A stretch of 64,000 bases of DNA from an uncultured Clostridiaceae bacterium (GTDB lineage: Bacteria; Bacillota; Clostridia; Saccharofermentanales; UBA5734). The stretch spans positions 1,122,634 to 1,186,633 of the forward strand of contig OW818697.1 of NCBI GenBank assembly GCA_942493365.1. Direction: 5' to 3'. The notes under the pieces are model-generated. The model searched no databases. It was given only the letters and a program-made list of their open reading frames with translations, and was not told the DNA's origin. Both the position numbers and the translations under genes were made by a program. This document shows, piece after piece, positions 56,911-57,060 of the stretch. The first letter of the stretch is position 1. Each line of letters begins with the position of its first letter.

Positions 56911-57060
56911 GGATTACACATCCGCAACTGTTCGTTTTTCGCTGTTCGTTGTTCGCTGAAAAGGCGGCCGCAGACGCCTTTTCCTAAGGATTACACATCC
57001 GCCACTTTTCACTTTTCACTTTTCGTCTTTCATCGAAAAATCGGCTTGCGCCGATTTTTC
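56911..57060 (-). repeat. two complete hairpin/heptad/end-box modules in tandem, minus orientation, abutting the ilvC stop
   Basis: The minus strand reads GAAAAATCGGC-gcaa-GCCGATTTTTC, then GATGAAA GACGAAA AGTGAAA x2, then AGTGGCGGATGTGTAATCC. The second module follows: GAAAAGGCG-tctgcggc-CGCCTTTTC, then AGCGAAC AACGAAC AGCGAAA AACGAAC, then AGTTGCGGATGTGTAATCC. Confidence 0.95.

Follow-up and report, generated by a model that had tools for sequence, protein, structure and literature searches.

Dispersed heptanucleotide repeat arrays and their orientation to transcription in a Clostridia genome

The modules behind ilvC and the array family of the window

The stretch of DNA analysed here, 64,000 nt of contig OW818697.1 from an uncultured Clostridiaceae bacterium (hereafter the window), contains at positions 56911-57060, directly 3' of the minus-strand gene ilvC, a non-coding sequence built around spacer-less tandem repeats of 7 nt. 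It consists of two 77-nt modules in tandem, A and B, with an ungapped identity of 74% and identical 16-nt end-box segments, which bears out the proposal of an earlier note on this DNA that two tandem units follow ilvC. Each module has a hairpin, an array of heptads and an end box (Table 1). Hairpin B begins right behind the ilvC stop codon; it is terminator-like, with an A-tract and a U-tract, and potentially bidirectional. A linker of 4 nt (TTAG) joins the module B end box to hairpin A, which is identical at 25 of 26 positions to a hairpin at 30985-31011. In a relative represented by L121 and L135, two parts of one ENA contig (IlvC protein 96% identical, DNA identity 72-82%), the array 3' of ilvC in L121 is orthologous to the module A array, and the flank AATCCTGTAAYATT is kept as well; module B and hairpin A make up about 100 nt that are extra in the window at ilvC compared with L121.

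The sample for the analysis was the 64-kb window and about 60 kb from relatives. In the window, Tandem Repeats Finder (TRF) at period 7 returned about 16 arrays (75-100% matches) where the earlier note had placed them, and a detector of at least three consecutive nRRnKAA units returned 17, whereas 50 block shuffles averaged 0.56. Fifteen of the 17 are real, and those at 2223 and 29425 are probable chance matches, the latter inside the gene for flagellin 2. Two unit flavours occur within nRRnKAA, an AACARSK type (class 1) and a GAARRRY type (class 2); three successive units of either type are found 19 and 16 times, respectively, and never in 100 dinucleotide-preserving shuffles. Taken together, TRF, the shuffles and the detector confirm the earlier claim of heptad arrays at multiple loci, in two related flavours under one consensus. 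None of the 94 units has an A at position 4, most begin with C or A, and CAGGTAA, CAACGAA, GGGTGAA and AGATGAA are the most frequent. Eight of the arrays have four units and four have eight, with single arrays of three, nine and 18 units, and TRF detects a higher-order period of 28 nt at 30931. All 15 real arrays lie outside genes supported by GC content at third codon positions (GC3), their sole overlap being with the last codons of leuD. Head-to-tail 7-nt units without spacers, in excess of what composition would give and at many intergenic loci with common units, are what is expected of long simple sequence repeats and of short tandemly repeated repetitive (STRR) sequences, and the assignment of the arrays to a clade-specific dispersed heptanucleotide repeat family of this kind is well supported. 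The statement that most terminators carry arrays was too strong, since inspection finds them at about half of the gene 3' ends that have a sizeable spacer.

Canonical modules of 69-77 nt, in which a hairpin is followed by about four heptads and an end box, start at 28403, 30748, 55304, 56911 and 56988 in the window and at 14486 and 17846 in L135, which has an inverted one at 14808. An ungapped alignment of 62 nt spans those at the unrelated loci 28402, 30748 and 55303 (28402 and 55303 are 73% identical), so that hairpin, heptads and end box do recur as a unit. Their order behind the stop codon, previously thought to be fixed, is not: in L121 heptads and end box come straight after the ilvC stop codon and the terminator only behind them, the arrays between leuD and leuB lack an end box and, in two genomes, a hairpin as well, and inverted partner copies adjoin no stop codon. 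The long arrays at 10074 and 36725 are without a canonical end box too. The hairpins follow the intrinsic-terminator pattern of A-tract, GC-stem and U-tract, with stems of 8-12 bp located 0-20 nt past stop codons, from which activity is predicted; a scan with a strict terminator consensus recovered only that at 30985-31012, called on the plus strand. They are heterogeneous, with at least three groups of unrelated sequence; in one stem, AAATCGGC/GCCGATTT, the loop is TTGC at 55304 and, flipped with respect to the array, GCAA at 57033. Compensatory changes separate orthologous hairpins, both at leuD-leuB (GTCTG/CAGAC versus GTCAG/CTGAC in L135 and L140) and at ilvB (CCGGC/GCCGG versus TCGCC/GGCGA). 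Because of these changes, the heterogeneity and the flipped loop, the hairpins look like ordinary intrinsic terminators, often bidirectional, which are abutted by arrays and do not form a fixed part of the element. Judged by its sequence, the hairpin common to 30985 and 56958 has clearly been copied along with its array.

The end box recurs at that end of an array which is farther from the gene, and it has the loose consensus (T/G)KCGGA(W)-N3-6-AATCC(T). The eight instances listed in the earlier note are all present as written, and two modules of L121 that lie 7 kb apart have identical end boxes. Since the bare pattern GGATTN6CCGC with one mismatch is at chance level (29 matches versus 27.7 expected), the end box is meaningful only beside an array.

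Polarity, turnover and distribution

Arrays and modules that lie just downstream of a stop codon read as purine-rich nRRnKAA on the sense strand of that gene at 16 of 16 independent loci, and none is antisense. The window contributes ten of ten to this count (10074, 28426, 30772, 30931, 36725, 41354, 55327, 56931, 57008 and 61306); sense arrays in the relatives follow ilvC, a DEAD helicase gene, leuD and ilvB in L121/L135, and ilvB, an acetyltransferase gene and ilvC in L137. All other arrays are inverted partners of neighbouring sense arrays, and the purine arm precedes the pyrimidine arm, on either strand, in seven of seven inverted pairs: 28426/28656, 30772/30931, 51449/51912 and 62884/62967 in the window, 14511/14835 in L135 and two in L137. 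The available data thus contain no exception to the strand bias with respect to genes, which was to be checked. With respect to the chromosome the arrays are balanced, with eight on the plus and seven on the minus strand. A replication-strand bias is therefore rejected, and the polarity rule follows transcription.

Part of this assignment depends on the gene map. Genuine genes of the window have a GC3 of about 0.7-0.8, above the value at first codon positions (GC1). Four minus-strand open reading frames (ORFs) at 8334-10046, 10280-10765, 11019-12092 and 34998-37127 (570, 161, 357 and 709 aa) have the mirror-image pattern, with GC1 above GC3, and no Pfam or NCBIfam match; they are shadow ORFs, and the true genes are on the plus strand. 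Synteny with relatives, L122 and L135 among them, identifies 33302-41354 as a plus-strand leuA-leuC-leuD-leuB-ilvD-ilvB cluster. With the GC3 and synteny correction, the array at 10035-10160 comes to lie after a plus-strand gene (8403-10025) and that at 36725-36857 inside the leu operon. The latter array includes the stop codon of leuD and ends in CAGTTG-AGGAG-N9-ATG, where AGGAG is the ribosome-binding site (RBS) of leuB. The C-terminal ..YIASK* of the relatives' LeuD is lost in the window (36725-36752), where leuD reads into the heptads and uses an in-array TAA as its stop codon. Arrays of this type can mislead ORF callers, and calling of long ORFs here gave the 709-aa shadow ORF across the leu operon.

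The leuD-leuB junction also shows how the arrays turn over. The relatives were found through searches with IlvC and LeuB, whose closest homologues are in Clostridia (metagenome-assembled genomes of Saccharofermentanales and Eubacteriales), in agreement with the gene content; DNA identity to the window is about 80% for L138 and L140 and about 74-77% for L137, and L122 is more distant. In L122 and L137 the array is absent from the junction and the leuD stop codon overlaps the RBS (AAGTAAAGGAGC). L135 has a hairpin and 4-5 heptads at this place, L140 a hairpin and 5-6 heptads, L138 about 6 heptads without a hairpin, and the window 18 heptads without a hairpin, replacing the native leuD C-terminus. 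All of these arrays are class 1 and sense, and all end in CAGT(T/A). Comparison of orthologous intergenic regions demonstrates variation in unit number, 4-6 in three relatives versus 18 in the window. Behind ilvB there is a module in L135, a decayed one in the window, a hairpin of class-2 heptads in L137 and nothing in L122. Unit order varies as well: the paralogous arrays at 28656 and 30931 are equal in length and differ in the order of their units. The earlier claim that unit number and order vary between copies therefore holds for paralogous and for orthologous arrays.

Arrays are kept at orthologous sites over about 20% DNA divergence, next to spacer that is not alignable, and the same units occur in L121, L135, L138 and L140; the DUF4130 gene, which has a 3' array in the window, has none in L121. 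By these comparisons the family is old enough to be common to species about 20% divergent in DNA, with number and order of the units turning over and the unit vocabulary kept. In L122, 21 kb contain no period-7 array. The junction of heptads and end box gave 11 matches in JGI metagenomes, all chance and none beside heptads, and chance matches only in the viral contigs of IMG/VR. The absence of arrays from L122 and the lack of a genuine junction match in the metagenomes and IMG/VR argue that the family is confined to a narrow Clostridia clade. Short-read contigs of relatives start or end exactly in arrays or at ...CAGTTGCGGA (both ends of L136, the start of L139), which suggests that the modules are multicopy genome-wide; arrays of this type break short-read assemblies. 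AACARSK-type heptads as such are widespread. A permissive scan of a genome collection for three AACARSK units followed by AACA gave at least 120 loci, and the matches listed are mostly from Cyanobacteria, Acidobacteriota and Bacteroidota and mostly homogeneous arrays, the cyanobacterial units being AACAGGG, AACAACT and AACAGCT. Arrays of AACGAAC, sometimes mixed with GAATGAC or AACAACT, are also present in unrelated phage contigs of IMG/VR (L150, L151, L153, L154 and L155; GC 33% to 64%), typically in the interval that leads from a stop codon or a hairpin to the following RBS, like the leuD-leuB array, and with no tie to the Clostridia end box.

When canonical modules are folded as RNA, stable hairpins flank the heptads, which stay unpaired because their purine-rich composition leaves almost no complementary bases. 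Inverted pairs behave differently. The pair at 30745-31015 (30748-30820 with 30910-31011) forms a long-range fold (z = -9.0), 62880-63050 a long imperfect hairpin (z = -6.1), 17040-17150 of L137, between convergent genes, a stem of about 22 bp purely of heptads (z = -5.9), and the inverted pair at 14485-14615 of L137 has z = -5.5.

Several further features lie next to the arrays of Table 1. Each flagellin module is followed by a 16-bp hairpin of one type, much stronger than that of the module itself (AACCAAAAAGAGATCG...CGATCTCTTTTTGGTT, then a T-run; 28488-28523 and 30834-30869). These two are probably the real flagellin terminators, which would put each flagellin module inside a 3' untranslated region (UTR). 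An IS110-family element at 61364-62883 (Pfam DEDD_Tnp_IS110 and Transposase_20) interrupts a class-2 array (61301-61363 / 62884-62938). Its transposase is split into three minus-strand ORFs (62155-62646, 61731-62219 and 61469-61753) and is probably a pseudogene. The insertion is analogous to that of IS110/IS1111 members which target repetitive extragenic palindromic (REP) sequences, and a bridge or seek RNA of the element might be complementary to the heptads (GGGTGAAG-type). About 65 nt upstream of leuA is a near-perfect palindrome (33153-33238, arms of about 43 nt, ..TTAGCGGCAAAGATGTGAC|GTCACATCTTTGCCGCTAA..) of which a split copy exists near 618-665 and 756-803 (span 618-803); it could be an operator or belong to a second dispersed repeat family. 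A small ORF resembling a membrane protein gene (minus strand, about 41428-41770, RBS GGAGG) is convergent with ilvB, and upstream of a znu-like ABC operon there are a perfect promoter, TTGACA-17-TATAAT (41822-41850), and a palindrome, TGCAAGTGTGTTGCA, both kept in L137. In-frame tandem repeats in the N-terminal part of infB (IF2) in L121 (2376-2819, periods 45-123) and L122 (2150-2638, 69 nt) are unrelated to the heptads.

Table 1. Positions of ilvC, the parts of its two 3' modules and the other array loci of the window
Feature	Position	Strand	Basis
ilvC	57061-58065	minus	NCBIfam ketol-acid reductoisomerase match, E = 1e-160
Hairpin B, GAAAAAUCGGC-GCAA-GCCGAUUUUUC	57033-57060	minus	sequence; 11-bp stem in RNA fold
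Module B heptads, class 2: GATGAAA GACGAAA AGTGAAA AGTGAAA AGTG	57003-57032	minus	TRF, detector; unpaired in fold
Module B end box, GCGGATGTGTAATCC	56988-57002	minus	sequence, alignment
Hairpin A, GAAAAGGCGUCUGCGGCCGCCUUUUC	56958-56983	minus	alignment, RNA fold
Module A heptads, class 1: AGCGAAC AACGAAC AGCGAAA AACGAAC AGTT	56926-56957	minus	TRF, detector
Module A end box, GCGGATGTGTAATCC	56911-56925	minus	sequence, comparison with L121
Weak hairpin, 8 class-1 heptads, second hairpin (10140-10160); without end box	10035-10160	plus	TRF, GC3, detector
Canonical module (hairpin, 4 heptads, end box) after flagellin 1	28403-28473	plus	detector, alignment, fold
Inverted partner module: end box and 8 heptads, without hairpin; paralogue of 30910-31011	28636-28714	minus	detector, alignment
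Canonical module after flagellin 2	30748-30820	plus	detector, alignment
Module 3' of ABC-F gene: hairpin, 8 heptads, end box	30910-31011	minus	detector, fold
Array of 18 class-1 heptads within leu operon	36725-36857	plus	TRF, detector, comparison
Degenerate module after ilvB, as noted earlier and borne out: hairpin, decayed heptads, TTTGCGG	41354-41408	plus	sequence, comparison
9 class-2 heptads, end box GGTGGAATGATAATCC, short antisense heptad stretch; divergent promoter region	51449-51559	plus	TRF, detector
4 class-2 heptads and reversed end-box-like GGAATGATAATC; inverted partner of 51449	51899-51953	minus	detector
Canonical module after ABC permease gene (54144-55301)	55304-55372	plus	detector, alignment
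8 class-2 heptads, 5 nt past stop codon of DUF4130 gene	61301-61363	plus	detector
Class-2 array continued beyond IS110 element	62884-62938	plus	detector
Class-2 arrays, inverted orientation	62961-63047	minus	detector, fold

What the arrays may be

An explanation of this family has to accommodate strict polarity to transcription, quantisation at four and eight units, a boundary motif at the gene-distal end, turnover of the slippage type and copying between loci. We infer that the arrays act, or at least are tolerated, at the level of RNA. They would be transcribed within 3' UTRs, read-through transcripts and intercistronic spacers, and as RNA the heptads would form unstructured purine-rich tracts with a terminator hairpin on their upstream side and, downstream, an RBS or a second hairpin. 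Pairing between the purine and pyrimidine arms of inverted pairs could give hairpins of 20-50 bp that extend or replace bidirectional terminators. Copy number would shift by slipped-strand mispairing in steps of 7 and 28 nt, and recombination or gene conversion would homogenise units and end boxes and copy modules between loci. Transcription within mRNA is supported by the leuD-leuB array, which lies between a stop codon and an RBS in the conserved leuACDB-ilvDB cluster, and by the heptads and end box of L121, which lie between the ilvC stop codon and the terminator. Taken as a whole, this explanation, polar purine-rich transcribed tracts with upkeep by slippage and recombination, is the most probable of those considered, although to us it seems evenly balanced between right and wrong. 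Its least certain part is a candidate single-strand nucleic-acid-binding factor of the clade that would read the heptads, suggested by the narrow unit vocabulary common to all loci and species.

Several observations weigh against an explanation at the RNA level. Canonical heptads are separated by 0-2 nt from the preceding U-tract of what is plausibly an intrinsic terminator, so that most transcripts may end before the heptads are reached. No hairpin is conserved in the end box (RNAalifold predicts 0 pairs across 13 copies, in which only AA and GG are invariant), and we reject a conserved RNA structure there on this ground. Only some units resemble known motifs, namely GGA (CsrA) or the Shine-Dalgarno-like GAAAGGUGA. 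Moreover, about 16 independent loci underlie the polarity rule, and the orientation bias could reflect orientation-dependent tolerance instead of function.

This last thought is at the heart of the most durable alternative, that the arrays are neutral or selfish microsatellites: functionless, slippage-prone heptads that were seeded in the AT-rich flanks of terminators and made uniform by slippage and gene conversion. They would persist only at places and in orientations that do no harm; the pyrimidine-rich complement UCACCUUUC, which is anti-Shine-Dalgarno-like, would for instance be harmful within an mRNA. Much of the turnover described above fits such an origin, including the freely varying number and order of units, the degenerate copy at 41354, the lack of the DUF4130 3' array in L121 and the contigs L136 and L139 that break exactly in arrays; heptamers are also the most over-represented long repeats in many bacteria, and slippage has been proposed for them (PMC4679880, PMC4692102). 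It is harder to see why functionless repeats should have a single narrow unit vocabulary over all loci and at least four species, be kept at orthologous sites despite about 20% divergence, come in lengths of four and eight units with an end box consistently attached, and be absolutely polar (16/16 and 7/7). We consider this explanation possible, if on balance unlikely.

At the other end is a more ambitious functional proposal, in which the modules are cis-elements of 3'-end and intercistronic punctuation and a putative single-strand-binding factor reads four consecutive nRRnKAA heptads (28 nt), always in one polarity and beside terminators, so that the four-heptamer logic found independently in Xanthomonas, Nostoc and Geobacter would reflect a general bacterial mechanism for making or using 4 x 7-nt units and not a G-quadruplex. 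This is speculative and, in our estimate, unlikely to be correct in full.

Copying of modules between loci raises the question of a non-autonomous mobile element of the miniature inverted-repeat transposable element (MITE), REP/bacterial interspersed mosaic element (BIME) or BOX kind, that is a block of about 73-77 nt which is transposed or copied downstream of genes. The ungapped homology of modules at unrelated loci (62 and 77 nt), the 26-nt hairpin that recurs at 30985 and 56958 with one difference, the extra 100 nt or so at ilvC compared with L121, and the hairpin and heptads between leuD stop codon and leuB RBS in place of a 15-nt ancestral junction (L122 and L137) would all be explained in this way, and the IS110-family element within an array recalls the insertion of such elements into REPs (PMC1525189). 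Against this, the module borders have neither terminal inverted repeats nor target-site duplications, also when filled and empty sites are compared at ilvC and leuD-leuB, and MITEs in the proper sense can therefore be set aside. The parts also occur independently of each other (an array without hairpin or end box; the flipped loop), the orthologous hairpins change in compensatory fashion as ordinary terminators do, no transposase or RAYT-like gene was associated with the modules among those ORFs of the 64 kb that were scanned, and neither JGI metagenomes nor IMG/VR contain a genuine match to the junction motif. A mobile element is thus improbable.

A site acting in DNA, either an array that binds a nucleoid protein or gyrase or a polar roadblock to transcription or replication at gene ends, has an analogue in BIMEs, which bind gyrase and IHF. 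Arrays do lie at 3' ends and between convergent genes, an AA every 7 bp brings each third unit into helical phase, and canonical heptads stand behind the terminator U-tract, where DNA would matter. Yet the strict transcription polarity and the mid-operon leuD-leuB array favour an RNA or transcription-coupled reading, and a roadblock in the leu-ilv operon would be harmful, making a DNA-level site very improbable.

Least credible of all is that the modules are small RNA genes of the opposite strand, with the end box as 5' stem, a CU-rich, anti-Shine-Dalgarno-like seed and the hairpin as terminator: read backwards, a module does present a short hairpin at its 5' end, a CU-rich single-stranded stretch and a terminator with U-tail, and the plus-strand terminator call at hairpin 30985-31012 agrees with this, but a scan and inspection found no sigma-70 promoter upstream of any end box, the 4 nt that separate hairpin A from the module B end box leave no room for one, a hairpin on that side is missing from the ilvC module of L121, and there is no Rfam match. 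Rfam 15 gave 0 matches in the window, with chance-level hits only in 56800-57100 (E = 0.24 and 0.76), and there was no tRNA match.

Other candidates were rejected as well. The end box and its flank are no outward or antisense promoter, having no -35/-10 match, and contiguous 7-mers are not a CRISPR array, with its repeats of 25-40 nt and unique spacers. A CsrA sponge of the CsrB/RsmZ type is rejected because the heptads are unpaired and not in hairpin loops; few heptads contain GGA (GGATGAA, GGACGAA, GGACTAA, or a unit before a G-initial unit). Mimicry of a Shine-Dalgarno sequence (GAAAGGUGA) or a CsrA site (AAGGAUG) would apply to some class-2 units and not to class 1. Nor are the arrays a general stop barrier in all frames: ten of 15 close the three sense frames, and arrays of CGAA units close none. 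Neither strand of both classes gives the C-rich, G-poor RNA of Rho utilisation (rut) sites, and the flanking genes are housekeeping genes (ilvC, leuB, ilvB), which speaks against contingency loci for phase variation.

Comparison with known repeat families

The earlier note did not recognise the combination as a described family. Heptamer arrays of this kind have in fact been described before, in Xanthomonas and Nostoc (PMC4692102), Geobacter (PMC2700814) and Beggiatoaceae (PMC4679880). Reports of intergenic heptamer repeats go back more than 30 years and cover several phyla, and they have established neither a function nor a generating mechanism.

The family of the window is unlike REP/BIME elements in its parts. 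Like them it is extragenic, located at 3' ends of genes and operons in single, tandem or alternating copies, and able to form hairpins in mRNA. REPs, however, are imperfect palindromes of 20-40 nt moved by RAYT, whereas the Clostridia repeat is a non-palindromic 7-nt unit with heterogeneous hairpins; at least three unrelated hairpin groups, and no IS200/IS605-like gene among those ORFs of the window that were scanned, argue against this identity. REPs are preferred targets of IS110/IS1111-family insertion sequences (PMC1525189, PMC11187229). The suggested likeness to pneumococcal BOX elements holds for the modular plan, intergenic with a variable-number middle between two end parts, and fails for composition and for the fixed order. 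The modules of BOX are 59, 45 and 50 bp of conserved sequence, and the Clostridia elements are set apart from them by the 7-nt variable unit, the varying order of parts and a non-homologous terminator hairpin in place of the 5' module.

Closer are the STRR sequences of cyanobacteria, and the similarity noticed earlier is upheld, as this is a real family of period 7 with variable unit number, scattered as heptanucleotide tandem arrays in intergenic DNA. STRR arrays usually have one homogeneous unit, a cyanobacterial host and no end box. The classical units are CCCCAGT, TTGGTCA and CAACAGT, and with a Clostridia host and units that differ from these the present arrays are not STRRs in the strict sense. 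The TAACTGA repeats of Beggiatoaceae, Cyanobacteria and Bacteroidetes, for which MacGregor (2015) proposed an RNA-binding regulator (S1, Csp or CsrA; PMC4679880), resemble them as genome-wide intergenic heptamer arrays of 2-43 copies, with sometimes mixed units, gene-tied orientation, 7-nt indels between strains and contig breaks. TAACTGA arrays are, however, mainly upstream of start codons over the RBS position, whereas the Clostridia arrays, the leuB array excepted, are mainly past stop codons, and TAACTGA is a different unit without association to a hairpin or end box. Geobacter metallireducens has 49 copies of an element with four tandem heptanucleotides GGACCGG, and also an element with five tandem MTYCTGA units (PMC2700814). 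These too are dispersed elements of exactly four (or five) heptamers, annotated as putatively regulatory, but their units are GC-rich and occur within genes as well, and a terminator or end-box context is not described.

The best studied parallel is with the GGGAATC heptamers of Xanthomonas and GGGGA(C/T)T heptamers of Nostoc, for which Rehm et al. (2015) found no function (PMC4692102). They are strongly intergenic, with mean distances of 28 nt to the upstream ORF and 160 nt to the downstream ORF, prefer four units, are mostly transcribed and sometimes inverted, lie on the coding strand downstream of ORFs and on the non-coding strand upstream, and persist between the same gene pairs in related species with varying length (PMC4692102). 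Heptamer repeats of Nostoc affect the expression of recF and recO according to a preprint (10.1101/2022.06.06.494920). The Clostridia arrays have in common with them the spacer-less 7-nt units close to the upstream ORF, the four-unit and orientation preferences, the inverted stem-loop pairs, and loci that are kept as length and sequence vary. Both genera belong to other phyla, and their repeats have no end box. For Xanthomonas no strict sense rule was reported (30% on the same strand, 35% on the opposite; PMC4692102), and the units of both genera, unlike most of those in the window, are G-rich and form G-quadruplexes, which have been used to explain the preference for four. Sizes of four and eight in units that are not G-rich weaken this explanation. 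Transcription polarity, such quantisation, a boundary box and an array kept in an essential biosynthetic operon are thus new constraints on heptamer repeats in general, and if a protein exists that reads them, the Clostridia family is a tractable place to find one.

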